Assembly (NCBI GenBank): GCA_963648895.1
Contig: CAVJGK010000001.1
Location: 26,745 to 90,744, forward strand
Source of the DNA: Lachnospiraceae bacterium
GTDB lineage: Bacteria; Bacillota_I; Bacilli_A; RFN20; CAG-449
Length of the DNA: 64,000 bases
Direction: 5' to 3'
Made by a program: the position numbers and the translations under genes. Shown here in pieces: positions 4,500-62,914 of the stretch; positions within the stretch are counted from its first letter, which is position 1; each line of letters begins with the position of its first letter. The notes beneath the pieces are model-generated. The model was given only the letters and a program-made list of their open reading frames with translations, did not search any database and had not been told where the DNA came from.

Positions 4500-5266
4500 T
4501 AAAAAACTCCGTAAATTTAAAAAACCCCCGGACCCGAAGGACACCGGAGGATAAACTGGAAAAATTTATCCAATTTAATAAGAAAAGATAGGGTTTAAAT
4601 TTTTGAGCGTACCTTAAAAACCCTTATAAGAAAGTATATTTGAGTCTTCACCCTGCATACTGTTATATCGGAACTATATTCTGCCATACCGAGAACATAT
4701 GTGAGCTATAAGTAGCGATCTTATAACTATATGCCCCTTTCGAGCGGTAAGAGGATTGATTACCCCTAGCTTTCATCAATCATTCACTTTCTAAAATCTT
4801 GCAATTCTTTAACCAAAGAATAAACAGGTTTTACCCTATTAGATTTTTCCAAATTATGACTACTCGAACCGTAAACTCGTCTTATACCTAGATTGCTCTA
4901 GTTCAATTGGAAATCTCGTTATTCGCATTTCCTAGGTTTGTCAAGTTGCGAAGCTTAAACCTAACTAGGATTCGGCAATGCTGTTAACACTGCTTTCTAT
5001 TGCCGAGACGACAAGAATCGTGCCATTAATTTCGATATTGTATGTACCACCAACACCACAAAATTCTCATTTAAGAACCTGAATAACTATATCACTATAG
5101 AAACCCATTAACTATTATTAGCTATCGTTAATAAATTGCCAATTGTGTAACCAAAGTATTGTTGATGTCTCAGCTGTATAACCTTACATCTTCACTGAGT
5201 TAAAATACTTTCTTATAAGAATTTTCAAAGAACTTTAAATAATATACAGGAAAATTTGTTTTCCTT
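4500..5266 (-). ncRNA. candidate structured stable RNA(s) downstream of the tRNA cluster
   Basis: About 770 nt with no ORF in any frame, even allowing TGA read-through. Locally GC-rich, with several perfect stems. CCGG..(12 nt)..CCGG near 4528-4547. AGGGTTT..(20 nt)..AAACCCT near 4580-4625. TCGGCAAT..(19 nt)..ATTGCCGA near 4971-5005. Co-oriented with, and immediately 3' of, the tRNA genes. Confidence 0.25.
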
Positions 5267-5356
5267 TGGCGTCCGTGGCAGGGTTTGAACCTGCGCACCG
5301 ATTGCTCGATCTAACAGTTTAGCAAACTGTCCTCTTAACCACTTGAGTACACGGAC
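5267..5356 (-). tRNA. tRNA-Ser (anticodon GCT)
   Basis: Cloverleaf folded by hand. Acceptor GTCCGTG/CACGGAC, anticodon loop TTGCTAA, long variable arm, T loop TTCAAAC, encoded GCCA 3' end. Confidence 0.8.
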
Positions 5357-5362
5357 ATTTTT

Positions 5363-5439
5363 TGGTAGGCGTAGCAGGAATTGAACCTACGATCTTACCC
5401 TTATCAGGGGCATATTCTAACCAACTGAACTATACGCCT
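5363..5439 (-). tRNA. tRNA-Ile (anticodon GAT)
   Basis: Acceptor AGGCGTA/TACGCCT, anticodon stem TGCCC/GGGTA with loop CTGATAA, T loop TTCAATT, ACCA 3' end. Confidence 0.8.
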
Positions 5440-5498: not shown

Positions 5499-5576
5499 TG
5501 GTCTGGATAATAGGATTTGAACCTATAACCTCCTGATCCCAGGCCAGGCGCTCTACCAAGTTGAGCTATATCCAGA
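5499..5576 (-). tRNA. tRNA-Pro (anticodon TGG, less likely GGG)
   Basis: Acceptor CTGGATA/TATCCAG plus discriminator A and CCA. D arm GCTC..GAGC, anticodon arm CCTGG-CCTGGGA-TCAGG, T loop TTCAAAT. Confidence 0.7.
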
Positions 5577-5787
5577 TAATTGAAGGGGTTTTCAGTCTCC
5601 CTTCTCGACCTCTCGGATATGTTTTCAGTCTCTATCCCGACCAGCGTACGCTGCTGTTACGTCAGCGAATTGCTCATTTGTCTAATTGGCATTTTTTGAG
5701 CCTGACCTTATTTGAGTTGCATATCAGGTAGCAACATGCATTTGTGCGCGTAACTTTGCTAATGCGAACATGTCCTTACGCAGGACT

Positions 5788-5861
5788 GGTGCTGATTGAG
5801 AGAATCGAACTCCCACTAGATGCTTACAAGACAACTGTTCTACCATTAAACTAAATCAGTA
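5788..5861 (-). tRNA. tRNA-Thr (anticodon TGT), slightly irregular
   Basis: Acceptor ACTGATT/AATCAGC with an A1:C72 mismatch. D arm GTTT-AATGGTA-GAAC. Anticodon arm GTTGT-CTTGTAA-GCATC with one U:U mismatch. T arm GGGAG-TTCGATT-CTCTC, then ACCA. Confidence 0.5.
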
Positions 5862-5905: not shown

Positions 5906-6799
5906 TTAGACCCTTCCCTTAGTAAACCCCGCAGGGCATGTATTAGCTAAAATATTAACTTTACCATCAGTATACCAATGCTTTCCATACGCGGGATTAG
6001 CACTTCCAGCATTCCAAGAAGTCATTTTTGGTTTTTCGTGTAGTTTGTGGTATTCTTCCGTTGACATAGTCAAGCGCTCATAGAAATCACGAGGGGATTT
6101 TACATTATAAGTTGTTTTGCAATATAATCACATATCTTCTAAATCGTAACCATATAATAACTTATATGAAAAGTCTTTAGGAACAGAATTAGCTTTTGCT
6201 TCAACTAAGTTTTTATCTGCGCGTTCTGATTTTAATTCTACAATAGTATTAGTATCAGGAAGATAAAAATCAGGAATATACACATGTGGACTATTTTGCC
6301 ACACATACTCAAAAGTAAATTTACAGCGCTCTATTTTAATGTCATGGTCTAAGCAATACACCAAAAAGATCAATTCATAACTAGATTGAAATGGCAAATC
6401 TTTGTAATAACCGTGATAACTGGAACTGCAATTTGTACTTCCACAAGCGATAGCAATTTTTTGTTTAGTTTCTAGCGAGTGTGGGCGTGAGCTCGAACAA
6501 GAACGAGAGCAATAAATACCGGTTCCAATTTTTTTATAAAATTGTTTACCGCAAGTCTTGCAAAAATGCTGCTCGCTATCCCACTGCGCTTGTTTTGCAT
6601 CTCGTACTGCTTTACACTTCGCTTTATAAGCTGCAGTTGCTAATGCCAGGTTCTGTTTAGCACATCTCATTCGTGCTTCCCATTTTTCATCCCCAAGATT
6701 AACTCGGCAATTAGATTTGTGGGCATTGAAACTCTGAGCATTTGTATAAGTTTTTCCGCATTTACATGTGTAAATGCCTGCGTATTTAGATGTCTTCAT
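5906..6799 (-). CDS. homing-endonuclease-like protein inside the tRNA cluster, read through one in-frame TGA
   Basis: Starts MKTSKYAGIYTCKCGK at 6799, 10 nt after the suppressor tRNA. Zn-finger-like CKCGK..HKSNC, a NUMOD-like SLETKQKIAIA element, and a PD-(D/E)XK-like IPDFYLPDTNTIVELK. TGA at 6128-6130 is followed in frame by 74 more codons ending in the conserved homing-endonuclease C-terminal motif SWNAGS..HWYTDGKVNILANTCPAGFTKGR. The track N-terminus MCSVMVAH... is a translation of the tRNA and is spurious. Confidence 0.55.
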
Positions 6800-6809
6800 A
6801 GTTAAAATC

Positions 6810-6903
6810 TGGCAAGTGTGATAGGACTCGAACCTACTCCCGCGGTTGTGGGCGCCGCTACCCGGTTTTGAAGACCGGTGTGCTACCATTACACTACACA
6901 CTT
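6810..6903 (-). tRNA. suppressor tRNA with anticodon UCA (reads UGA), class II with long variable arm
   Basis: Hand-folded. Acceptor AAGTGTG/CACACTT with G73 and encoded CCA. D arm GTGT-AATGGTA-GCAC. Anticodon stem CCGGT/ACCGG with loop CUUCAAA (U33, anticodon UCA, A37). Roughly 24-nt variable arm with GCGG/CCGC stem. T arm GTAGG-TTCGAGT-CCTAT. Confidence 0.8.
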
Positions 6904-7018
6904 ATTAATGCTGGATTCACTATTTATGATACCAGCTAGACCCAAACAGTTCCTAGCTCTCTCCACAGAACATGACTCCGATCCCGAGACGTCACTGATA
7001 ACCGAGTGCGTACGCTTT

Positions 7019-7093
7019 TGGTTGCGGATGGAAGATTCGAACTTCCGACCTCCAGGTTATGAGCCTAGCGAACTACCTCTGTTCTAATCCGCG
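7019..7093 (-). tRNA. tRNA-Met (anticodon CAT), initiator-like
   Basis: C1:A72 mismatch (CGCGGAT...ATCCGCA-ACCA). Anticodon loop CTCATAA, T loop TTCGAAT. Shows the bacterial initiator features. Confidence 0.8.
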
Positions 7094-7122: not shown

Positions 7123-7151
7123 ATTATAATATACGACTTTAAATTTGTAAA
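7123..7151 (-). promoter_or_regulatory. sigma-70-type promoter TAGTTTACA-N17-TATAAT driving the tRNA cluster
   Basis: Coding-strand reading gives TTTACA (7151-7146), a 17-nt spacer and TATAAT (7128-7123). It is about 30 nt upstream of tRNA-Met. Confidence 0.5.
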
Positions 7152-10469: not shown

Positions 10470-10472
10470 ACT

Positions 10473-10768
10473 TATTTTGTTATCTCCTCAAGTGCCTGTT
10501 CTAAATTATTTGCATCGCAAAATCTTGTTCCATTCACCATGACTTTTATATGAGGACCAAGTGAGTCATACTCACAATTTCTTACGCGTATAACGATAGG
10601 AAATCCTCTTCCATCCACTTGTATCCTTCTGATGTAATCGATTCAGTACGTACCACTGTATCTAAATTGAAACCCTAAATCGTACAAAGTAGTTATTTCT
10701 TCTTCTACCTGTTTTCTCATTTCTTTATTAGAGAAATCTTTTATAAATTTACGTTCATCATTATTCAT
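10473..10768 (-). CDS. subtype-A2 paralog containing one in-frame TGA
   Basis: MNNDERKFIKDFSNKEMRKQVEEEITTLYDLGFQFRYSGTY[TGA]IDYIRRIQVDGRGFPIVIRVRN...VMVNGTRFCDANNLEQALEEITK. Full-length alignment to 9859-10161 passes through the TGA at 10643-10645. Confidence 0.5.
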
Positions 10769-15384: not shown

Positions 15385-16281
15385 CTAAAATAGCTCATCT
15401 TTTAGTACTTCCTTAACTCGCATATCAGAAGATTTCCTCATCTTCACAAAGTTGATTGCACAATTCTTATTTTTACGAACGACTGTAATCAAATCTTCTT
15501 CAATAAAAGTATCATACACTGAATTTAAAAGTCTTCCAATTAATTCATTACGTTTAGCGTCAGGAAATTCATTAAGAATTTTAGCATACTCTTTTCTAAT
15601 AACTGAATCAGTTATATACTCAAGTGCAACTTTTAACTCAAAATCATCCTTTGCTTCATGATTTTGTACTCTTAGATTACTCTTCTTATTAAAGAACTCT
15701 TCGCTAATTACTTTACCCCATACAGCATGACCCCATTTATTTTTATAATTATAGTTTTTAACTACAACTCCTTCTGGTGTGCAACCTTCAGGCATTAAAT
15801 AATGAGTTTTATTAATATAAGTAGCAACCTCTTCAATTGTTGGATTTTCTAACCTAGCAATCTCTGGAATGTAAGTTAGGTTAAACTCTTCTAGCATTGG
15901 AACATACTCATCGTAAGATAGGTATCTTTCTTCCACTGCGTCAAATACATCAAAGATGTAGAACTTTCTCCAAGCGTCTTCGTTGTATGACTTAATTGAA
16001 TGTGGTACTAACCATTCTCCATACACTAAGTGGGTAGGATGTTTTAATAAATATGCTTTAATATTTTCATCCTTTTCTATTGTATTATAGAAACCTGCAT
16101 TGTCATCATGCAAAGATAATTCTCTTTTTCTAGAACCGGCATGAACTAATCCATCATCTCCTAAAAAGACTACAGAATTAGTTCCATCAATTTTAGGTTG
16201 GATAGTAACGGTTCCATTTAAAATGCCATCGCACTCATTTCTTCCTAGTTTCTCTATGTGTTGATAACTCTTATATTGCAT
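15385..16281 (-). CDS. ATP-dependent RNA/DNA ligase (Rnl2-like nucleotidyltransferase)
   Basis: Motif I KIDGTN (compare KIHGTN in T4 Rnl2). 298 aa, with GEW and EG(V)V(V)K-like downstream motifs. Confidence 0.55.
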   Translation of the reverse strand: MQYKSYQHIEKLGRNECDGILNGTVTIQPKIDGTNSVVFLGDDGLVHAGSRKRELSLHDDNAGFYNTIEKDENIKAYLLKHPTHLVYGEWLVPHSIKSYNEDAWRKFYIFDVFDAVEERYLSYDEYVPMLEEFNLTYIPEIARLENPTIEEVATYINKTHYLMPEGCTPEGVVVKNYNYKNKWGHAVWGKVISEEFFNKKSNLRVQNHEAKDDFELKVALEYITDSVIRKEYAKILNEFPDAKRNELIGRLLNSVYDTFIEEDLITVVRKNKNCAINFVKMRKSSDMRVKEVLKDELF

Positions 16282-20308: not shown

Positions 20309-20893
20309 TTAAATTCTACCGGGGACAAATCCCTCTGGACAAATCTCTTTGCGCACATTTATAGTTCCATTATTAAACCATTTTAATTTGTGCATTGTTT
20401 CTTTTCTTTTATCTTTCGTCACCTGCGTTTGTTTTTTGCCTAAATTAGCAGCACGTAGTTTTTCTTTGGTTTCTTCTGAAACAGATTTTCCTTTATTTCA
20501 TGGAACTTTTCCTTTATGTGCTTCGCTCATTTTCTGTCTTGCTTCTGTAGATCGCTTTTGACCTTTTAAGCTATTATTCATCTTTTCCTGTGTCTCAGCA
20601 GACCTTTTATACTGGACATTTCTTACTTTTTCTTTAAAGTCATTAGTTCTGTAAACAGATGGAAACTTAATATAATCAGGATGTTCAATATTAAGGCTTA
20701 CGCACTCTAACGAGTTATATTCTATCAAATTTCTCTGCCATTTATCTGGAGAACATCGCCATAATAGGTAATTGCATCTAAGGTGCTCTTCTAAAGGTAA
20801 TTCATCCACAAGCTTAAAATAAGATTCTAGCACATCAGGTAATTCCATTTTAGTGATAAGTTGTTTATAACATGCGTTATACTCAAGTTTCAT
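20309..20893 (-). CDS. NUMOD-repeat homing-endonuclease-like protein with one in-frame TGA
   Basis: The track ORF ends with TGA at 20498-20500. In-frame continuation NKGKSVSEETKEKLRAANLGKKQ (another NUMOD3-like repeat) ends in the conserved C-terminal motif WFNNGTINVRKEICPEGFVPGRI and TAA. Confidence 0.5.
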
Positions 20894-22048
20894 TTATACT
20901 TTCTCCCATACATATATTTTATTACCTGCGCCATAAATCTTGCTCACTGCTTCTTCAGCATATTCTGAAACAATATCTTTATTAGGTAGCATATACCATA
21001 CATTAGGTTCTGTATAACCTACAAGGCGCATTCCTAATACTTCATATTCATGCCCAGCAAACTTATTAAAATCGCAGTAAGCAGTTATTTTATTCGGGCG
21101 ATGCTGTTGTATAAAGTAATTAAACAACTTAGACATTCCACCAGTGACCAAAATGCTATTCTTAGTAGTGTTTTGTGTCAGTTCCCAATCATCATTAACT
21201 TTGCCAAAAGACATTGTCTGAACTAATTCATTATTATAAAATAACCCATAAGTAATCAGCACGCCTGGAATTTCTCGTATTGCGCATTCACTTGCATCTA
21301 TACGCGTTTCCACTTTATTTAAAACAGCACGCAATAACGACTTTATAGTTTCCCTAGTAGCATCATCATTTCATTCCCATTCATAAATATGAATTAAATG
21401 TATTCCTTTATTAGCACATTTTATACTTTTATTTAAGTGATAATACTTATCTGTTCCTGCAATATCGCTATGATAGTACTGCCCATTAAACTCTATTGCA
21501 ACTTGGGCACCAGGAATATAAATATCTAATTCTTGTGGCGGAATAACATTTCTTACATGTGTTAAAACTTCCCCATCATAAATACTTTGTACATAGTTAA
21601 ATATTTCTTGTTCCGGATGTGAACCAGTATGAGTAATTCCGTTGTTAAGATCATCAAAAGAATCCTTTAGTCTTTCGTAATCGTCCTTAGAAATATAAGC
21701 AATATTGCCATTTTTATATGTTTTGATATTCCGATTATTAAGTGTAGCAGCTAATCTACATCGCTTTATCTTATCATTATAATCTACAATATCTTTTAGT
21801 ACTACTATATCAGGATTACTGTGTAATTCATTTATTATTGCCTGCTTATTCTTCTCGGTTGTTATTTTATTAAATAGCGTAGCACAGTTGTGTGTATCAT
21901 AAAATTGTTTTACTTTAGGTAAAGAATCTATAGGAAATTCTCCATTAGCGTTAGGTGCTATTTCCAAGTATTCAAAAATATTCTTTACTGTTCCTTTTGA
22001 TATTCTGAGAGCATCAGAAAACCACCTAACCTTTTTATAAACCATCAT
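20894..22048 (-). CDS. DUF559/Vsr-like (PD-(D/E)XK) endonuclease-domain protein, two track ORFs fused through an in-frame TGA
   Basis: ELDIYIPGAQVAIEFNGQYYH motif. The track ORF ends at TGA 21371-21373. The next 12 codons NDDATRETIKSL run straight into ORF 20894-21334 in the same frame. Confidence 0.5.
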
Positions 22049-48036: not shown

Positions 48037-49020
48037 CTACTTTCCTAAATAATATTTTGGTCCATAAATTAAACTATCAACACCTATTTCATACTCTTTA
48101 TTACATATTAATTTAATACTGTCAGGATTAAACATTGAATAAGTATCTTGAGCTAACTTTAGTGCTTCCTCTTCAGTTTTACCCTTTTTAATTGCCTTCT
48201 CATAAGTTTCATGAATCTTAGATTGGTTCTCATCTTCATACCAACCATCACATACAATATAAGGGTCGACTGACCATGGAGTAAAAGAACATTTTTCATT
48301 TGCTGCTTGTACCATTAATTCGCAAAGACGCTCTGCAACTCTTTCTTGATTCTGTAGAGGTGCTTCACAGAAAACTTCATCATGGATGGTAACCAGCAAT
48401 CTAGCACCTAACTGTTTTAATTCTTCGTCATTATTAATTAAAATCATTGCAGATTTTGTCATTGTAGCAGCAGAAGATTGAATTCTAGCATTTAATGTTT
48501 GTCTTAATGCTCTACTAATAAACGCACTATTATTACGTACTTTTAATCCATCTGTCTCTGCACGCTCCTGAACACTTTGCCTTGCTATTTTAGTTTTAGC
48601 TTTTTCGAGTTCTTTTGTATATTTTTTAATCTTTACTTCTAACTGCTTATCTTGATGCTCCCGTGCGCCAATAAAAGGATTAAAATAATCTTTCTTAACT
48701 TTTTCTTCTATTGTATATAGGGGTAATTGCGCATCAGGTAAATGTCTTCTTCTACCATAGATATTAGTGACGTATCCAAGTTTCTTTGCCATTTCCTGTG
48801 AATCTTTTGTAAATTTATCAACTGCTTTAAATCCATCATAATACGCATCAATAATAGAATTTGCTTCAGTTACAGGTAATTGCATTCTTTTTGCAAGTGT
48901 TGGTGCAGACATTCCATAGTTAACACCGAGGAATACCTGTTTCGCTTTTGATCTTCGCTCCTTACCTTCTTGTGATTGTATTACTGTAACATTTGAATGT
49001 CGTTTTACTTTTATTTGCAT
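48037..49020 (-). CDS. DNA polymerase I (family A), C-terminal segment (motifs B and C)
   Basis: RSKAKQVFLGVNYGMS (motif B, R..K...FG..YG) and LLVTIHDEVFCEAP (motif C). Confidence 0.7.
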   Translation of the reverse strand: MQIKVKRHSNVTVIQSQEGKERRSKAKQVFLGVNYGMSAPTLAKRMQLPVTEANSIIDAYYDGFKAVDKFTKDSQEMAKKLGYVTNIYGRRRHLPDAQLPLYTIEEKVKKDYFNPFIGAREHQDKQLEVKIKKYTKELEKAKTKIARQSVQERAETDGLKVRNNSAFISRALRQTLNARIQSSAATMTKSAMILINNDEELKQLGARLLVTIHDEVFCEAPLQNQERVAERLCELMVQAANEKCSFTPWSVDPYIVCDGWYEDENQSKIHETYEKAIKKGKTEEEALKLAQDTYSMFNPDSIKLICNKEYEIGVDSLIYGPKYYLGK

Positions 49021-49039
49021 ACATATCCTACTTTCTTCT

Positions 49040-50089
49040 TCATATACAATTATACACTGTTTTATCCGTATTTAACACATTAATTATCTTTTTGCCCACA
49101 TTTCTATAATGAATATTATCTAAACCTAAACTTAAGATATATTTAGCAGCTTGATTAACAGAAACAAATTCCATCTGGTCGTTATTTTCATCTATCATAA
49201 TAATATGATATCCATGAATGCCTGCTACAACGCTTTTAATTTTCTTCATACTATCTTCAGAATACTCTTTTGATTTCTTGGTACTTTCTTCAATCTGTCA
49301 AGTATATCCATTGAGTAGTAATTCGTTTTTAGATGCTCTCTTTAAAGTTTCAGGACTTGTTTTTATACACTGACACACGCTTTTAATTGAATTAAATTCT
49401 AGTACCTCTGTTTCGTTGTATGCTTTAACCTTAAGACTATTCTTTGATGCAATACTATTTTTAGTTTCTATTGAATGAGACTTACCATAAAATCCATTCT
49501 TTTTGCCTATTCTCTGCTTACTTATTTCAGACAGTTTAGCTCTAGTTTCTTTAGAAGGACAATAACCTTTTTTACCCTCACTAATATGTTGACACCAAGA
49601 CTTATAAGAATCTGATTCCTTATCAATATCCTTATAATAAGCTAATAATGACTGTTTTTGTTTATTTCTACATTCTTCTGTGGAAGTAACCTGCAATATC
49701 ATTTCTCTATATTCTAAATAATATTGTTCAATGTTATCTAATAAGCTAATAAATTCTTCATATTCAGGTAAGTTATTGAGCTGTTTATTTCTTAAAATGT
49801 ATTGAATACTAGCATAGTTCTTGCCTTTATATTGGTCGGTACTGCACCTACAAAGAAAATAATGAGCTAAAATATGGTCTTTAATGCTAAGATTTACTAA
49901 ATTATTAGCTGAATTATCGACTGCTAAGTTATTAAGTTTATAATAAAATCTAGGTACAATATGATGCTTTTGAGTTTTATTAACACAATGCTCTGTATAT
50001 CTATTATTTTCTATTAGATTTGCATATTTGTCGAGTCATTCATTATCTATTACTAAACCAATAGTGATTAATTTTTCTTTTGTCTGCAT
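49040..50089 (-). CDS. HNH homing endonuclease with NUMOD repeats and C-terminal HTH, containing two in-frame TGA codons
   Basis: MQTKEKLITIGLVIDNE[TGA]LDKYANLIENNRYTEHCVNKTQKHHIVPRFYY...NLVNLSIKDHILAH (HNH). NUMOD-like SKETRAKLSEISKQRIGKKNGFYGKSHSIETKNSIASKNS. The TGA at 49298-49300 links in frame to QIEESTKKSKEYSEDSMKKIKS...FVSVNQAAKYILSLG (IENR-type HTH). Confidence 0.55.
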
Positions 50090-50490
50090 TTCTCTATTTC
50101 AAATTCTACATTTGCTGCTTTGCCTGGATGCACCAATGCGATAAAATAAGGTTCATCCTCAACTAATATCTCATCATTTACTGATAAATCCTTTGCATAT
50201 TTCCAACCATTAGGAGTTTCTAATTCATCATCAAGATTTACTGTAAAAGCATGGTCTATGATATCAACAGCAGCATCACAAGGTTCTATCGACTCTTTAA
50301 CCGGTTTAAATTCTAGATTATCCTCATACTCATTGTGATAACATTTTGATGCAATCTTTGCGTACAAGTCTTGTTGTTGCTGATATGCTTCCTGCATATC
50401 TTTATCTTGCGCAAAAGCGCACAAAGAGCGGGGTTCCTGACCACTAAAATCCCCACCAATAATCGCATATCGTTTTCTTACTCTAATCAT
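50068..50490 (-). CDS. DNA polymerase I (family A), middle segment (motif A)
   Basis: IIGGDFSGQEPRSLCAFAQDKD matches the polA motif A DYSQIELR...HLS.D. The C-terminal 60 aa are Hint-like (see findings). Confidence 0.6.
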   Translation of the reverse strand: MIRVRKRYAIIGGDFSGQEPRSLCAFAQDKDMQEAYQQQQDLYAKIASKCYHNEYEDNLEFKPVKESIEPCDAAVDIIDHAFTVNLDDELETPNGWKYAKDLSVNDEILVEDEPYFIALVHPGKAANVEFEIEKCRQKKN

Positions 50491-51118
50491 CTACTTTCTC
50501 CCATTTAATATAATCTATTATAACATCTTTATATGTTGGTTGCGAACCCTTTAAAAATTGTTTTATCTTTCTTTGATACATTGCTTCATTGAATGGATAA
50601 CCTGGTTTTAATGGACGTGTATTATACCACCAAATAGCGCCTTCTCTGATAGAATCGAAATAATATTCTTTTCCTTCGTAATAGCATTTAACTTTTATAG
50701 ACCTTGTAGCATATTGTTGATTTTGACCGCATTCACCATTTTCTCTAATCTTGGTACCATAATAGTTTAATCCTTGAGCTTTATTATCTTCTAAACGTTT
50801 TTCTCTAGAATCTTTTATCTTTTGTTTATGCTCTTCGCTAAAACCATTTTCTTTTCTATAATCCGATAAACTTTGCGAAATTTTATCTCGTACCTCTTGC
50901 GAAGCAACTTTTGCATCATGTTTTGCTTTCCACACAGGGTCCCACATAGGATTAACTGGATTATCACTCAAATATCCATAAGCAACTTTGAGCTTAAAAT
51001 TATCTGGGTATTTTTCACAAAGTAATCTATGCGCTTCTACGTGTTCTTCATGAGTCAACCTAATAATATTTTTATCTTTTTGCCGAGATTTACCTTCACC
51101 ACCCATACATTTCGGCAC
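50483..51118 (-). CDS. HNH homing endonuclease within polA intervening sequence 1
   Basis: IIRLTHEEHVEAHRL (HNH) and a NUMOD-like SEEHKQKIKDSREKR. Confidence 0.5.
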   Translation of the reverse strand: MPKCMGGEGKSRQKDKNIIRLTHEEHVEAHRLLCEKYPDNFKLKVAYGYLSDNPVNPMWDPVWKAKHDAKVASQEVRDKISQSLSDYRKENGFSEEHKQKIKDSREKRLEDNKAQGLNYYGTKIRENGECGQNQQYATRSIKVKCYYEGKEYYFDSIREGAIWWYNTRPLKPGYPFNEAMYQRKIKQFLKGSQPTYKDVIIDYIKWEKVDD

Positions 51119-51209
51119 TATATGGTGTCCTTCCCAGTTACATTTTAAATTAGCTCATTGTCCCCGTTCTCTTTTAATACTATTTATGTATTCATCATAA
51201 TTCATTAAG

Positions 51210-52916
51210 TTAAACCTCCAACAAATAATAATTATCTTGCTTTATTATATTTTTAATAGTCTCAACATTATCTTCTGATTCCAGCTTATCACCAACTTTT
51301 AATTGATTTACAAATACCCAACCATTATCAGTTAGTACTTCTTCTGTATCCTCAATCTTATAAGTAGAATCTACGCTTTCTACTTGACGCTCATCTATAG
51401 TTGGTTCAAAAATCATTCTAACTGTTTTATCATGAGATGGAATATTTTGTAAGTTAGGATTTGATGACGCAAATCTTCCTGTAACAGTACCAATAGGGTC
51501 AAATCTACCATGTACTCTGTGATTTTTATCTACGCCCGCAGGAATAGCATCAATGAATGTAGTAATAAGAATGTCTACCGCTCTTTTTTCTTTAATTAAT
51601 TCACAAACTTTAATATGCTCTTCTTCAGCTAATTGGTCTAAGATTTCTTTACCTGTTCCGCGTGGTTTATCCTTATTAACACTTGGTGCTTTAAGAATGT
51701 CATATAAAAATATTGCTAATTGAGTATCTGAATTTAAATCAATAGGATCAGATAATTTTTCTGCGGGAGTTTTACTTGCCCACTTATACCTCTTCTTTAA
51801 TTTTTGGTCATAATAAGGGTATTGCTTTTCAATCTCTGCTTCTGATAATTTAGTCTTCTTTGGAGCATACACGGGTTGTCTAGTGTTTGCTTCAGGAGTT
51901 AACTTCCAATCATCAATTAATTTTTGATTTGCTTTTACTTCTTCATCAATCTCTCTTTGTTTCTCATCAGACTTTGCATGATAAATAGTAGACATCTTAT
52001 CTGCATACTCTGTGTTAACATAAACACCTGCTGTTTCCATATCGACTACAACATCTAAAATTGGGATTTCTACTTTATATAATAAATCTAATAGTTCTTT
52101 ATTTTCAGGTCTAGTTAAAATCTCAAATTGATATTCTTGTAATTTAAAAGTATCATAACTATCTGTAGCAGCATATAGTGCAAATAGTTCAGGGTCAAAC
52201 ATAGCATAAGGAAAACCTGCAAATAAATGCTCTATGTCGTATCTTTCTTGCGTTGGATCAATATGTAATCTGTATTGTGCTTTTAAACCTTTAAGCTCAT
52301 TTTCATTTATTAGATGTGCACCTACTTGAGTATCCCAATCAACATGTACTCTTGTTCCAGTTGTTTGCTGAAGAACTTCAATATCAAATATTGCGTTATG
52401 AAATATAGTATAAGTATTACCTAAACGTTTAAGTTGTTCTGCTATTTGTGATTCTGTAAGTTGTCCTTCTACTAAATCACCCATAATAACTTGCTCTTTA
52501 CCTTTTTCATCATATTCAACTGTAAATTTTCTATGATTAACAGGAACATATGCTGCTTTCATGCCTGGAGTATATAAACAAAGACCCATCAATTTACAAT
52601 CTTTAAAAACTTCTAATGTATTATTAGTTTCGGTATCTATTGCAATCTTTCCGTTTTCTAACGCTTTATCAATATACTTTTTATAATCTTCATAAGTTCT
52701 AATTACAATAGTATTTTCGGCATATCTTCCTAAAATCTGATACACTTGTTCCCTAATTAATTGCATCTTATCATAGATAGAAATATAAGAAGATTTTAGT
52801 TTTTGTTGAACTGTTAAATTTTCTAACTTTTTAGGTGCTCTCGCTTTTTTAAGAATAGACTGAGTATCTTCTTCTTTTAAAGTAAATTCTTCACCCCACA
52901 GAGATAATTGTTCCAT
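51210..52916 (-). CDS. DNA polymerase I (family A), N-terminal segment (3'-5' exonuclease plus N-terminal polymerase domain)
   Basis: 568 aa. Conserved SSNPNLQNIPSHDKTVRMIF block just before the expected position of motif A. Ends with a TAA. Confidence 0.7.
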   Translation of the reverse strand: MEQLSLWGEEFTLKEEDTQSILKKARAPKKLENLTVQQKLKSSYISIYDKMQLIREQVYQILGRYAENTIVIRTYEDYKKYIDKALENGKIAIDTETNNTLEVFKDCKLMGLCLYTPGMKAAYVPVNHRKFTVEYDEKGKEQVIMGDLVEGQLTESQIAEQLKRLGNTYTIFHNAIFDIEVLQQTTGTRVHVDWDTQVGAHLINENELKGLKAQYRLHIDPTQERYDIEHLFAGFPYAMFDPELFALYAATDSYDTFKLQEYQFEILTRPENKELLDLLYKVEIPILDVVVDMETAGVYVNTEYADKMSTIYHAKSDEKQREIDEEVKANQKLIDDWKLTPEANTRQPVYAPKKTKLSEAEIEKQYPYYDQKLKKRYKWASKTPAEKLSDPIDLNSDTQLAIFLYDILKAPSVNKDKPRGTGKEILDQLAEEEHIKVCELIKEKRAVDILITTFIDAIPAGVDKNHRVHGRFDPIGTVTGRFASSNPNLQNIPSHDKTVRMIFEPTIDERQVESVDSTYKIEDTEEVLTDNGWVFVNQLKVGDKLESEDNVETIKNIIKQDNYYLLEV

Positions 52917-60697: not shown

Positions 60698-62914
60698 TTA
60701 AATTTCATGCTTCCAACCAGATGATGTTTTTACCCACACATCAGTAACACGCTTCCAACCCGCATCCACTTTAATATATGCTGATTGAATGTCTACCCAT
60801 GCAGGGACATCTGTAGAAGATTTTTGTATTTTTATTTTCTTACCTGTTTTTACCCAAACACCATAATACTTAGGAATATTATCTTTGTTATCCCAAGGCA
60901 AATAGCGCTCTTTATCAGTAATAGAAACAGTATAAGAAGGAATTAAATTATTAGTAACACTTGCTTCAATATCATCTATTGACTCGTATACACCATAAGT
61001 ATTCCAGAAATCATTTGGTAATTGGGAAGTCCAACCTACGAATGAATGATCTTCCCATACTGGCGCATTCATTTTCCAAACAGAACTACTGGTAATCATT
61101 GAAGCGTCATACCACTGTCTGTCTGGATTTTTCCAAACACCATTATAATAAATAAAATCTACATAGTGCGGAACTTCTGACCAAGAAGCAACTAATTCAT
61201 ACTTAGTTTGTCCAGTAGCATAGAATGCATCATCTAAAGTTGCGCCTGGCGCATATGATAATCCATTGATTGTCCATGCTTTAAATAATCTACTATTATC
61301 ATTATAAGTAGGAGTTATAGTAGGCAAAGTTGCTGCAGTGCCATAAGTCTTACTAATAGAATCTATCTTAGTTGGTGTTATTGCACTTGATGTTGCATTT
61401 AAATTAAATGAAACTGTGTATGTAACAGGTGCCCATATCGCAATTAAAGTAGAATCTGCTTTAAACTTAGTCGTTGATGTAACCTTTATTCCATTATATT
61501 GCCATTCTTTAAATGTATAACCTGTTCTTGTAGGTGTTGGTAAGGTTCCTATCGCAGTTTCTGTTATTGAGCTTCCACTTTGTGCCCATTGAGCAATAAA
61601 TGAACCTGGTCTAACTACCCCGCTTCCACCAATTTGAACACCAGTATCTCCCCCAGAAGTGGTGTACCAATTACTTTTTGCAGTATAAGACGTTTTAGAA
61701 TTACAAGAAATAATTGAGTCCGAACAAGCAGAACCTCCATCACTATTATAATGAATAGTAACATTTGTTTTACCTGAAACATCATAAGTTAATTTATATA
61801 AACTTGGTCAAGAGGTGGAATTATTTTCTAGAACATTACTAATTTCCGCCTTAGTTGGTCTTGTTTGATCTGTGCCAGCACTAAATGTCATAATTGGATA
61901 CCATTTAGCATATAAGGTCATATTAGAATCAGTAGAAACAGAAGTAACTTTTGTTCCGTCCTCTTTATACCAACCAGCAAATTTATAACCATCTCTTGTT
62001 GGTGTTGGAAAACCTGAAAAAGATGCTTTAGATGTTACATCAGTAGTAGAACCGCCATTAGACCAGTTTGCCCAAACTTCTTGATTTGCAATACTAACTG
62101 TATCTCCTGCATTCTTACCATTATTCCAACCAGTAAAATTATATACAGTTGTAGTTCTAGTACTCGCTGAACCGGTTAAAGAACTTACCGAACTTCCACC
62201 ATTTGAATTAAAATATAAATAAACAGTTTTAGTTCCAGTAGAGGTCTCATTAATTGAAGAACTTGAGACACCTGGGCAAGTTACAGTTTTTCCGGTCCAT
62301 CCTGTGTAAGTTGATGTTCCAGAAACAGAACTTCTAGACGTTTTAAACGTCATTGTCATTTTATTACTGTCTGTAAAAGGTGATATAAGAGAAACTGTTG
62401 GGGTGCCGATTGTCATTGTGCCACTAGATGATGTGACTCCTTTATACATAGTTACATTGCCTGTCCAACTTTCAGTTGTTTTAGCACCTAGGGTAAATGT
62501 GTAAGAGTAGTAGGCATCACCTAGACCTCATTCTTGTTTTAAATCATTATAGCTACGAATACCAATATACCCGGATGTATAGGCATTACCCCCCTCAGAG
62601 GTTCCTCTTCTAAGTGTTATCGACGGTATTACCATTCGCAAGTCATACGCAAACGAGGCGCTACTATTCTTAGCAAGACATATATAGACGGTTACTGTAG
62701 TATTACCCGATCCATCACTTTGTGGGGAACACCTAACAGCTAATTGTGGTTGAATATAGCTGGGATTTGACACTTTTCCTGTTCCACCATACTCTGAAAA
62801 GGAAATGGTACAGTTATTATAAGCGAGGAACTGATCTCCATTAGTGCATGTTCATGATGTACTGCCACCACCATAGACTGATGAGTAATTGCCATTAGGA
62901 TAATAAACTGCCAT
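60698..62914 (-). CDS. receptor-binding/tail-fibre protein with Flg_new-type (Y.F.GW) repeats, containing three in-frame TGA codons
   Basis: AGGAG RBS 8 nt upstream of ATG at 62914. TGA at 62852-62854, 62528-62530 and 61808-61810 join track ORFs 62528-62773, 61808-62449 and 60698-61327 into one 738-codon frame. Repeats GFPTPTRDGYKFAGWYKEDGTKVTS, GTLPTPTRTGYTFKEWQYNGIKVTS and YNFTGWNNGKNAGDTVS. Confidence 0.55.

Follow-up and report, generated by a model that had tools for sequence, protein, structure and literature searches.

A phage tRNA(UCA) of apparent tRNA-Trp descent that carries a second anticodon-type arm and may read TGA as tryptophan

The stretch of DNA analyzed here, referred to below as the window, is 64,000 nucleotides long and consists mostly of a replication module. 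According to our analysis, its minus strand encodes at 6810..6903 a 94-nt tRNA with anticodon UCA, which derives from tRNA-Trp and carries two anticodon-type arms. ARAGORN placed a tRNA at exactly these positions, with the anticodon tca at position 33 and the label "tRNA-SeC," while Rfam RF00005, the general tRNA model, matched 6813-6903 with 59.4 bits (gathering score, 29) and beat the tRNA-Sec model in clan competition. The covariance model R1, representing related phage tRNAs, gave it 95.7 bits, compared to at most 61 bits for ordinary tRNAs, and its minimum-free-energy fold is the same five-helix cloverleaf, with an energy z-score of −0.07, which is uninformative. The gene thus encodes a real tRNA, far beyond chance, and every structural element that the preliminary description had listed for a tRNA(UCA) with a long extra arm is present.

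As read from the sequence, the acceptor stem AAGUGUG/CACACUU has 7 bp and is followed by G73 (6813, minus strand) and an encoded CCA; together with A1-U72 (6903/6814), the discriminator constitutes bacterial TrpRS identity elements. The D stem GUGU/GCAC (4 bp) closes the 7-nt loop AAUGGUA, and the T stem GUAGG/CCUAU (5 bp) closes the loop UUCGAGU. The decoding anticodon arm CCGGU-CUUCAAA-ACCGG (6862..6878, minus strand), delimited by ARAGORN and by the sequence, presents UCA at 6869-6871. The insert of 24 nt has the stem GCGG/CCGC and forms the extra arm GCGG-CGCCCACAA-CCGC (6842..6858, minus strand), a putative pseudo-anticodon arm by covariation and family counts, whose conserved CCA lies at 6849-6851.

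The gene belongs to a minus-strand cluster which begins with a tRNA-Met(CAU) (7019..7093) and includes a tRNA-Thr(UGU) (5787-5860), a tRNA-Pro(UGG) (5499-5575), a tRNA-Ile(GAU) (5363-5439), and a tRNA-Ser(GCU) (5267-5356), all identified by ARAGORN and Rfam. An endonuclease-like gene (5906..6799, minus strand) starts, with its ATG at 6799-6797, 10 nt downstream of the 3′ CCA of tRNA(UCA), and the earlier report that this gene contains a TGA of its own proved correct (TGA 6128-6130). Co-transcription of the cluster had also been proposed. A near-consensus promoter-like site, TTTACA-17-TATAAT, with 11 of 12 matches lies upstream of tRNA-Met (7123..7151, minus strand), and downstream of ROOL there is a hairpin with a T run that resembles a terminator (4525..4540, minus strand) and possibly ends a tRNA/ROOL transcription unit. 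Both fit the proposal, but co-transcription is no more than a possibility because promoter-like sites are no more numerous than expected from shuffled sequence. The GC-rich spacers within the cluster had no Rfam match and gave only weak folding z-scores. Megablast of the cluster against cultured phages found no match, an exact search for the anticodon arm of tRNA(UCA) returned only unrelated tRNAs and true tRNA-Sec genes, and the closest relative of the DNA polymerase, 43% identical, comes from a human fecal sample.

The long arm had been taken as a variable arm and the tRNA as class II, Ser/Leu/Sec-like, and this assignment did not survive inspection of the core. With a 4-bp D stem, a 7-nt D loop, and 7/5 acceptor/T geometry, the core is class I-like, and for this reason we consider the tRNA neither class II nor tRNA-Sec. 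The acceptor/T domain of a tRNA-Sec spans 13 bp (8/5), against 7 plus 5 bp here, and its D arm pairs 6 bp around a 4-nt loop, against 4 bp and 7 nt here; the true tRNA-Sec genes that we found at two other loci (L004 and L006) do show the 8-bp acceptor, the 6-bp D stem, and the 4-nt loop. The UCA anticodon, G73, and the long variable arm are shared with tRNA-Sec, but they are common to other tRNAs as well and insufficient for the assignment. Class II tRNA-Ser is characterized by a 3-bp D stem, an enlarged D loop, and variable-arm linkers of 1 to 2 nt, none of which is found here. The linkers of the extra arm measure 3 and 4 nt (3 to 8 and about 5 nt across the family of related tRNAs described below), and, unlike tRNA(UCA), the tRNA-Ser(GCU) that the phage also encodes does have a large D loop.

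The 111 open reading frames (ORFs) of the window end in TAA (73), TAG (29), or TGA (9). Six of the nine TGA-ended ORFs run on in frame for 62 to 369 codons, and a genuine TGA stop is present in at most 3 of about 105 genes. We counted seven in-frame TGAs in six genes, all on the minus strand. Homing-endonuclease-like genes account for four of them, a tail-fiber-like gene for two, and a small ORF for the last. In the endonuclease-like gene adjoining tRNA(UCA), 73 further in-frame codons follow the TGA, and the three closest homologs (46 to 53% identical) span the site with Trp in 3/3. The nuclease-like gene at 20894..22048, with DUF7487 relatives, has its TGA at 21371-21373, where homologs spanning the site carry Trp in 106 of 119 cases, Leu in 9, Ile in 2, and Val in 2. 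The tail-fiber-like gene with InlB-B repeats (60698..62851; start uncertain) has five uninterrupted homologs of 729 to 735 amino acids; its TGA at 61808-61810 is opposite Trp in all five, whereas that at 62528-62530 is opposite Pro in all five, which speaks against a Trp reading there.

At the remaining sites the evidence is of other kinds. The NUMOD3 endonuclease-like gene at 20309..20893 (TGA 20498-20500) has a single Pfam NUMOD3 match, residues 111 to 147, which spans the TGA at residue 132, and the NUMOD3 repeats that best match the site read VPWMKGK and IPWNKGK. At 10472..10768, the gap between packed genes is filled only if the TGA at 10643-10645 is read through, giving a small gene of about 98 codons. 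The HNH/NUMOD3 endonuclease ORF at 49040..50035 contains its TGA at 49298-49300 (NGYT*QIEE) and lies between two parts of a DNA polymerase gene; no homologs covering this TGA were found, and the split polymerase region gave no group I intron match with Rfam. The NCBI copy of one of the proteins ends early at its in-frame TGA. At loci carrying tRNAs of the family, the gain in coding density with TGA as sense is larger (median, 0.124 versus 0.064; P = 5e-4). The comparative evidence shows TGA to be a sense codon of the phage, and the earlier proposal that tRNA(UCA) supplies the decoding part of a phage-borne recoding system is borne out, the in-frame TGAs being real and TGA stops nearly absent. 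TGG accounts for only 1.0% of codons in the window genes, and its 186 occurrences versus 7 of TGA would argue against a code 4 host.

Trp ancestry had been denied to this tRNA. When tRNA(UCA) and the family consensus were compared by BLAST with 50,697 phage records, all annotated matches were tRNA-Trp. The consensus aligns with tRNA-Trp genes in two pieces, its 5′ part with their 5′ halves and the portion from the extra arm to the 3′ end with their 3′ halves. When either arm is deleted, the remaining 74-nt tRNA shows 75 to 83% identity to two annotated phage tRNA-Trp genes and 64 to 73% to a third, more divergent one; without the extra arm, the window construct agrees at 58 of 75 positions with tRNA-Trp from Aeromonas phage Aes012. 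Among family members, the acceptor/D/T segments have tRNA-Trp as their best match in 18 of 50 cases, against a background of 3.4%.

The discriminator and the first acceptor pair point the same way. Bacterial TrpRS determinants include A1-U72 and G73 (PMC9976931), both of which are present in tRNA(UCA); G73 occurs in 45/45 UCA members of the family and A-U at 1:72 in 38/46. CCA is missing from the anticodon position, which holds UCA, and is present only in the extra arm. As to the Bacillus subtilis determinants G2-C71, G3-C70, G4-C69, and G5-C68, the window tRNA has A2-U71, G3-C70, U4-A69, and G5-C68, and most family members carry G-C pairs at 2:71 to 5:68. By mass spectrometry, 13/13 phage tRNA(UCA) tested, described there by anticodon, inserted Trp (PMC12636597). 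On this sequence evidence the tRNA is a predicted opal suppressor derived from tRNA-Trp, and tryptophan is strongly supported as the amino acid that it would put in at TGA. With Trp ancestry, TrpRS determinants, and Trp in homologs at three sites (106/119, 5/5, and 3/3, with Ser in none), the aminoacylation identity, previously described as open, is much less so.

As for the enzyme, no gene for TrpRS or a release factor was seen among window ORFs of at least 250 amino acids, and a TrpRS probe based on an approximate query had no match adjoining any family tRNA, a result that is only indicative. Because no synthetase gene is found in the window or beside the tRNA relatives, host TrpRS is presumed to be the charging enzyme.

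Comparative evidence marks the long "variable arm" as another anticodon stem-loop of the tRNA-Trp type, in which the wild-type CCA is retained and which likely arose by duplication of the anticodon arm. The family comprises at least 50 phage tRNA(UCA) sequences, and its alignment contains 46 sequences, 45 of them UCA; part of the alignment was picked with a pattern requiring the loop motif and fitted to the same model. The decoding loop is CUUCAAA in all 45 UCA members. The extra helix shows compensatory changes at 4/4 pairs, and the extra loop follows the consensus N-U-C-C-A-A-A, as strongly conserved as the real anticodon loop, with U, C, C, A, A, and A each in 44 to 45 of 46 sequences and CCA in 45/46. 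UCCA was present in the extra loop of 9/9 metagenome relatives found with nine loop positions left free, and CCA in 17 of the 21 sequences of an unbiased viral set. The hairpin thus has the shape of an anticodon arm (stem of 4 to 7 bp, loop of 7 nt) together with the cognate triplet. The window tRNA itself has the most degenerate loop of the family, GCCCACA, with a C·A closing mismatch and with C at the equivalents of both U33 and A37, but CCA is kept.

The order of the two arms is fixed, with the UCA arm 5′ and the CCA arm 3′. The forward order was found in 87 stretches, corresponding to at least 50 unique tRNAs, whereas the search for the reversed order gave 12 matches with no tRNA among them. 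One Trp-like long-arm tRNA(UCA) (L054) lacks the CCA loop. Conversely, true bacterial tRNA-Sec genes may carry UCCAAA in the variable-arm loop, although these were found with a pattern demanding that motif. The contig scan for the family was swamped by chance matches and by such tRNA-Sec genes; its family members are at four loci (L180, in a Phoenicibacter metagenome-assembled genome; L194 and L273, which include a Parabacteroides goldsteinii assembly; and L262), all of them probably phage DNA.

The same design recurs in other phage tRNAs, recovered in scans that placed no constraint on the extra arm. Long-arm phage tRNA(UAU) has GAU (Ile) in the extra loop in 28/32 cases, and long-arm phage tRNA(CUA) has CUG (Gln) in 10/10. 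Triplets cognate to the other two families are absent from the extra loops of the UCA and CUA sets, and the cross-matches in the UAU set (2 CUG and 14 CCA counts) come from the closing C beside the loop CAGAUUA. A cultured example is the tRNA-Ile-TAT at 104738-104829 of Stenotrophomonas phage DLP_6, accession KU682439.2. TrpRS, GlnRS, and IleRS all recognize the anticodon. We put at about even odds the generalization that phages have repeatedly evolved "split-identity" tRNAs, in which a new decoding anticodon is combined with a copy of the original anticodon stem-loop, which takes the place of the variable arm and serves the synthetase as a pseudo-anticodon. If so, UCA would be poorly accepted by TrpRS, CUA by GlnRS, and UAU by IleRS, amino acid identity would be uncoupled from codon reading, and the window tRNA would be a member of the Trp/UGA branch.

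For the window tRNA, the explanation that we favor, with a probability of roughly 0.6 for the whole, is that it is a Trp-derived opal suppressor whose extra arm serves as a pseudo-anticodon. A real tRNA with a UCA anticodon and a class I-type core would insert Trp at TGA, a sense codon of the phage that is in frame seven times in six genes, and its extra arm, a second Trp-type anticodon stem-loop with CCA, would act as a pseudo-anticodon for host TrpRS. The identity elements of bacterial TrpRS are C34-C35-A36, G73, and A1-U72, of which the decoding arm no longer has C34. Presentation of the spare CCA loop to TrpRS could keep charging efficient, so that the tRNA would hold its own against release factor 2, with the UCA arm pairing with UGA on the ribosome. 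TrpRS might touch the spare loop where the arm juts out at the variable region; alternatively, the CCA arm might move for a short time into the canonical anticodon position.

The first alternative keeps the Trp-inserting opal suppressor and assigns the CCA arm a role unrelated to the synthetase, be it as a structural element under selection, as a decoy or shield against host nucleases that cleave the anticodon loops of tRNAs, or as a handle for a modification or processing factor of phage or host. Many phage tRNAs for Asn, His, Gln, Thr, Cys, and Pro from similar contigs carry long extra arms with unrelated GNRA-like loops, and therefore extra arms as such must serve some other use. The window also encodes an RNA ligase (PF09414), and RNA ligases are the type of enzyme that phages use for tRNA repair. 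There is further a geometric objection to synthetase contact, the tip of the variable arm being far from the CCA end, as the author of the engineered system considered below points out (PMC7590224). Finally, E. coli TrpRS charges some ordinary tRNA(UCA) (PMC12636597; 10.1101/2021.08.26.457843), so Trp charging does not depend strictly on the extra arm. However, a role apart from the synthetase leaves unexplained why three independent families carry loops with the cognate anticodon (CCA, CUG, and GAU) with almost no cross-matches, and why the arm is present on tRNAs whose decoding anticodon departs from the one read by the synthetase. We deem this alternative unlikely, though worth keeping in view.

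A second alternative, which we consider very doubtful, is a two-headed tRNA, either arm of which could read (UGG through CCA, UGA through UCA), or a precursor from which one arm is excised to give tRNA-Trp(CCA) or tRNA-Trp(UCA). The canonical 74-nt tRNA-Trp-like sequence left by deletion of either arm would suit it, as would the RNA ligase gene, linkers longer than those of class II tRNAs, and the result that ARAGORN detected no ordinary tRNA-Trp(CCA) encoded in the window. Against it stands the strictly fixed arm order. Moreover, a UCA anticodon reads UGG too, by wobble, and the CCA head is therefore not needed for decoding and would be superfluous. A second head for codons already served by abundant host tRNAs would bring the tRNA(UAU) and tRNA(CUA) analogues little benefit. 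Excision would amount to the splicing of a small intron, for which neither phages nor bacteria are known to have a system, and processing signals were not found either.

The remaining alternative, a class II Ser-, Leu-, or Sec-like suppressor charged by SerRS through its long arm and G73 and putting Ser or Sec at UGA, can claim the ARAGORN label and the finding that arm size matters more to SerRS than arm sequence does (PMC9976931), but it is already largely refuted and is the least probable of all, since the homologs show Trp and not Ser, Leu, or Cys opposite the TGAs, the geometry is 7/5 and not 8/5 with a 4-bp D stem and 7-nt loop, Rfam favors the general tRNA model, the BLAST relatives are all tRNA-Trp, SerRS needs no conserved loop sequence, and the annotated large ORFs of the window include nothing that resembles SelA or SelB.

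Two further ideas were dropped. The CCA loop might act as a T-box decoy by pairing with a UGG specifier; we set this aside because the same architecture occurs in the Stenotrophomonas phage and, for Gln, in other phages, whose likely hosts, as far as we know, have no such T-boxes. Intramolecular pairing of CCA with the UGG of the D loop was also set aside because it cannot be extended to the loops with GAU and CUG.

Opal suppressors and TGA-to-Trp recoding are already known from phages, while a natural extra arm with the cognate anticodon is not described in the open-access literature that we searched, where the only precedent found for a pseudo-anticodon tRNA is engineered. How host synthetases are brought to charge such tRNAs efficiently was explicitly left open in previous work (10.1101/2021.08.26.457843), and a conserved second arm bearing the cognate anticodon offers a concrete, testable answer. 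Three tRNA families with the same design suggest a general rule for moving an amino acid identity to a new codon. If the pseudo-anticodon explanation is true, it would provide a natural precedent for the engineered principle and tRNA scaffolds for genetic code expansion, and it would account both for the Sec, Pyl, or undetermined labels wrongly given by tRNA finders and for the detection of suppressors in only 35 to 40% of recoded phages. Gene calling would benefit as well, as the deposited annotation of the source genome cuts proteins at TGA. A laboratory test is possible since the cultured Stenotrophomonas phage DLP_6 has the Ile version.

Among known systems, the closest in biology are the Jade and Agate "code 4" gut phages, whose tRNA(UCA) opal suppressors recode TGA to Trp (Borges et al., 10.1101/2021.08.26.457843; Seki et al., PMC12636597). 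Like the window, they combine a tRNA(UCA) with a low-GC genome depleted of TGA stops and in-frame TGAs aligned with Trp, their replication module mostly follows the standard code, and host TrpRS is the presumed charging enzyme. The papers on these phages give the suppressors by anticodon, some by discriminator base, and do not mention a second anticodon-type arm. The window differs in that, of its six genes with in-frame TGAs, four are of the homing-endonuclease-like kind, as opposed to lysis or structural genes.

Mycoplasma and Spiroplasma (genetic code 4) likewise have a Trp-derived tRNA, tRNA-Trp(UCA), whose UCA anticodon decodes UGA (and UGG) as Trp. It has the ordinary class I form with a short variable loop and belongs to a cellular lineage whose translation system is wholly adapted to code 4, whereas the window tRNA is phage-borne and has the added CCA arm, and TGG is still far above TGA in the genes around it. 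Bacterial tRNA-Sec (selC) resembles the window tRNA in the UCA anticodon, G73, the long extra arm, and the ARAGORN label and differs in its 8/5 geometry, 6-bp D stem, and 4-nt loop.

The proposed function of the extra arm has its nearest counterparts elsewhere. In the E. coli thrS mRNA operator, as cited in PMC7590224 (Torres-Larios 2002), an anticodon-arm mimic is bound by ThrRS through its anticodon-binding domain; this is an off-position stem-loop imitating the cognate anticodon arm for a synthetase, but, going by that citation, it lies in an mRNA leader and represses translation and yields no charged tRNA. Engineered allo-tRNAs with a pseudo-anticodon in the variable arm enhanced aminoacylation in vivo, a design that required a 9/3 allo-tRNA chassis and a HisRS with an extra fused anticodon-binding domain (Mukai 2020, PMC7590224). 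In both the allo-tRNAs and the window tRNA, a variable-arm hairpin mimics the cognate anticodon arm, and identity would be split from decoding; tRNAs of the window type differ in being natural, in having a 7/5 class I core, and in presumably being served by unmodified host enzymes.

The minus strand of the window carries six tRNAs between 5267 and 7093 according to ARAGORN, which called the one at 6810-6903 (-) with exact ends, placed its anticodon tca at position 33 and labelled it tRNA-SeC. The same sequence scores 59.4 bits against the Rfam general tRNA model, the tRNA-Sec model loses the clan competition, and the minimum-free-energy fold contains the same five helices. All elements listed in the preliminary description are present, namely the acceptor stem AAGUGUG/CACACUU with G73 and an encoded CCA, the anticodon arm CCGGU-CUUCAAA-ACCGG, the T loop UUCGAGU and an insert of 24 nt with a GCGG/CCGC stem, as read from the sequence. 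The ATG of the next gene lies 10 nt downstream, and that gene contains, as had been claimed, a TGA at 6128-6130.

Directly downstream of the tRNA cluster lies a full-length ROOL RNA (4622-5223 (-), Rfam RF03087, 256 bits), followed at 4525-4540 by the sole terminator-like hairpin of the region. Within the cluster, the tRNA-Met(CAU) at 7019-7093 (-) shows a C1.A72 mismatch in the Rfam alignment, an initiator-like feature, but only two G-C pairs at the base of its anticodon stem. Two comparatively GC-rich spacers, 6904-7018 and 5576-5786 (-), contain no ORFs and no Rfam matches; relative to shuffled controls, folding is slightly better for the former (z = -1.9) but not for the latter (z = -0.8). 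Theta ribozymes, described elsewhere beside phage suppressor tRNAs, were not detected in these two spacers.

The window has a GC content of 31.8% and closely packed minus-strand genes, including a replication module with NrdD, SbcCD, clamp and clamp loader, DnaB, primase and a split family-A DNA polymerase. Among its 111 ORFs, 73 end in TAA, 29 in TAG and only 9 in TGA. Six of these nine TGA "stops" are followed by 62 to 369 further in-frame codons, one has a TAG three codons further on, and the remaining two terminate questionable ORFs of some 52 codons. Another in-frame TGA, the seventh, lies at 10643-10645 and joins two segments that fill exactly a gap between abutting genes, and the TGA at 20498-20500 falls inside one single Pfam NUMOD3 domain. 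These stop counts, the gap-filling gene and the domain read across a TGA bear out the proposal that this phage recodes TGA. The NCBI copy of the protein encoded at 21371-22048 (-) (P0001) stops at the TGA, with 224 aa, which indicates that annotation of the deposited contig (116,943 bp) used the standard code and truncated its TGA-containing genes. TGG is still the main Trp codon (186 of 18,592 codons in window genes) and, together with the low number of in-frame TGAs, this points to a lightly recoded genome, as reported for the replication modules of TGA-recoded gut phages (10.1101/2021.08.26.457843).

Four of the six genes with an in-frame TGA are homing-endonuclease-like (5906-6799, 20309-20893, 20894-22048, and 49040-50035 (-)), one of them inside the tRNA cluster, and their predicted expression would depend on the suppressor tRNA. 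The DNA polymerase (48037-52916 (-)) is divided over two ORFs, 51210-52916 and 48037-49020, with three ORFs between them that include an HNH endonuclease, whose domain lies within 111 codons without an ATG, GTG or TTG start; an Rfam search found no group I intron in the split-polymerase region.

The residue inserted at TGA is, on the strong evidence of the homologs' alignment columns, probably tryptophan. At 21371-21373 the column holds Trp in 106 of 119 homologs (otherwise Leu in 9, Ile in 2, and Val in 2), and at 61808-61810, in a tail-fibre-like gene, all five full-length uninterrupted homologs have Trp. At 6128-6130, in the gene beside the tRNA, the three closest homologs (46 to 53% identical) have Trp, with variation among distant, poorly aligned ones, and the NUMOD3 repeats best matching the site at 20498-20500 read VPWMKGK and IPWNKGK. 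The TGA at 62528-62530 falls in a poorly conserved stretch where five of five homologs have Pro and the closest local match has Trp one column on; no homolog spanning 49298-49300 was found. Since Trp makes up about 1% of residues, Trp-dominated columns at three of five informative sites constitute strong evidence. In E. coli extract, all 13 phage tRNA(UCA) tested inserted Trp (PMC12636597).

The tRNA had been described as class II, Ser/Leu/Sec-like and not Trp-derived. Its core is instead that of class I, with a 4-bp D stem, a 7-nt D loop (AAUGGUA) and 7/5 geometry, and it possesses both A1-U72 and G73, which are determinants of bacterial TrpRS (PMC9976931). When the tRNA was searched by BLAST against 50,697 annotated phage records, the annotated features matched were of tRNA-Trp type only, and the same held for the consensus of a family of related long-arm phage tRNA(UCA). 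Positions 6 to 40 of this consensus align with the 5' halves of tRNA-Trp genes. The 3' halves are matched by positions 50 to 96, which span the extra arm at the variable-arm position, the T arm and the 3' strand of the acceptor stem; one of these matches is a phage attachment site that its record places within tRNA-Trp(CCA). Once either arm is deleted, the remaining 74 nt share 75 to 83% identity with the tRNA-Trp annotated in Proteus phage Stubb and in Aeromonas phage Aes012; for that of Bacillus phage Tsamsa, which is more divergent, the value is 64 to 73%. With both anticodon-type arms removed, tRNA-Trp was the best match for 18 of 50 family members versus a 3.4% background; the window tRNA alone gave a tie between tRNA-Trp and tRNA-Pro, which is due to its divergent acceptor stem. 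The tRNA derives from tRNA-Trp and not from a class II tRNA; the suppressor role assigned to it in the preliminary description stands, and the ancestry and class do not. We put the probability of a UGA decoder that is derived from tRNA-Trp and inserts Trp at about 0.85 to 0.9.

The family emerged from a viral-contig scan in which the UCA loop, the T loop and the distance were the only constraints, leaving the extra arm free. It comprises tRNAs of 93 to 98 nt whose extra arm is a 4- to 7-bp hairpin with the loop N-U-C-C-A-A/U-A/C; CCA occurs in the extra loop of 17 of the 21 sequences of this unbiased set and is lacking in that of the true tRNA-Sec genes (loci L004 and L006 of the scans). A second scan raised the total to 52 unique long tRNA(UCA), including two true tRNA-Sec genes. 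A covariance model of the family gives the window tRNA 95.7 bits versus at most 61 for ordinary tRNAs, which makes it a clear family member. Across 46 family sequences, in an alignment fitted to that model, all five helices covary, each of the 4 pairs in the extra-arm helix shows compensatory changes, and 44 to 45 of the 46 sequences have U, C, C, A, A, A in the extra loop, a conservation equal to that of the real anticodon loop. When metagenomes were scanned for the subfamily closest to the window tRNA, with nine loop positions left free, UCCA stood at the loop centre in 9 of 9 sequences. The window's own extra loop, CGCCCACAA, is the most divergent copy seen, keeping CCA with C at the U33 and A37 equivalents. 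A pattern scan for the reversed arm order gave 12 matches and no dual-arm tRNA; the order of the two arms is fixed. At loci with family tRNAs, the coding-density gain when TGA is read as sense has a median of 0.124 versus 0.064 (P = 5e-4), reaching up to 0.37 at single loci. The extra arm copies the Trp anticodon stem-loop and is conserved under selection.

One exception to the family rule is a Trp-like tRNA(UCA) at L054:2905-3002, misparsed by ARAGORN as Phe(aaa), with the acceptor AGGGGCU.../...AGCCCCU-G-CCA and a 29-nt extra region without the CCA loop. A genome scan with a pattern that had required TCCAAA also returned true bacterial tRNA-Sec with the variable-arm loop motif YCCAAAAGG (L185, L196, L208, L216, L226, L238, L250, L253, L269, L276, and L278), a motif that may reflect this selection.

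The same design recurs in other isotypes, in scans whose constraints were limited to the anticodon loop, the T loop and the gap. The 21 unique long UCA tRNAs have neither GAU nor CUG in the extra loop. Among 32 with anticodon UAU, GAU occurs in 28, CUG in 2 and CCA in 14, the last owing to the closing C beside the usual loop, CAGAUUA; all 10 with anticodon CUA contain CUG, and none CCA or GAU. These long-arm phage amber suppressors (L428, L444, L474, L479, L500, L504, L515, L535, L539, and L540), labelled "tRNA-Pyl" by ARAGORN, all carry CUGA(A/G) in the extra arm, usually as the loops CUCUGAA and UUCUGAGG. The tRNA-Ile(UAU) loci fall within L309 to L426 (e.g., L309, L314, L318, L319, and L394), and a cultured representative is Stenotrophomonas phage DLP_6, in whose annotated tRNA-Ile-TAT the arm reads CCGC-CAGAUUA-GCGG (L547:397-488; KU682439.2 104738-104829). 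Long extra arms were also observed in other phage tRNAs (Asn, His, Gln, Thr, Cys, Pro, and Met; L039, L061, L068, L077, L091, and L138), with GNRA-like loops such as GAGAAAU that are not anticodon-like.

The major tRNA-Ile has the anticodon GAU, and CUG is a tRNA-Gln anticodon; the anticodon is a major identity element for TrpRS, GlnRS and IleRS. Each of the decoding anticodons alters one of the determinants, C34 in the case of UCA, G36 for CUA, and G34 or lysidine 34 for UAU. The analysis shows a Trp-derived tRNA with anticodon UCA, TGA read as sense at Trp positions and a second arm with CCA that selection maintains. The spare arm may act as a pseudo-anticodon offering CCA determinants to the host TrpRS, which would allow the suppressor to be charged well enough to compete with RF2; we lean modestly toward this full explanation, pseudo-anticodon function included. 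Class Ic enzymes (TyrRS and TrpRS) approach the tRNA from its variable-arm side and GlnRS and IleRS do not, for which reason a transient exchange of the two arms, instead of a static contact, was considered and is a serious alternative. As regards a pseudo-anticodon read by the host enzyme, no TrpRS or release factor was found among window ORFs of at least 250 aa, and probing around all family tRNAs with an approximate query sequence found no adjacent TrpRS. An RNA ligase of the type used by phages to repair cleaved tRNAs is encoded at 15385-16281 (-) (PF09414, E = 3e-19) and may bear on host defences that target tRNAs or on how the dual-arm tRNA is processed.

Phage opal suppressors and TGA-to-Trp recoding are already established (PMC12636597; 10.1101/2021.08.26.457843). 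The open-access literature searched yielded no account of a cognate pseudo-anticodon arm in natural tRNAs, and an earlier one elsewhere is possible; what appears to be new here is the architecture of a phage Trp opal suppressor with such an arm. If the proposed function is true, the dual-arm architecture would represent a new general principle. An engineered pseudo-anticodon makes the principle of an extra identity arm plausible, although its author points to the large distance between the CCA end and the V-arm tip, and the design required an extra fused anticodon-binding domain (PMC7590224). The thrS operator, as cited there, mimics an anticodon arm and likewise lends the principle plausibility.
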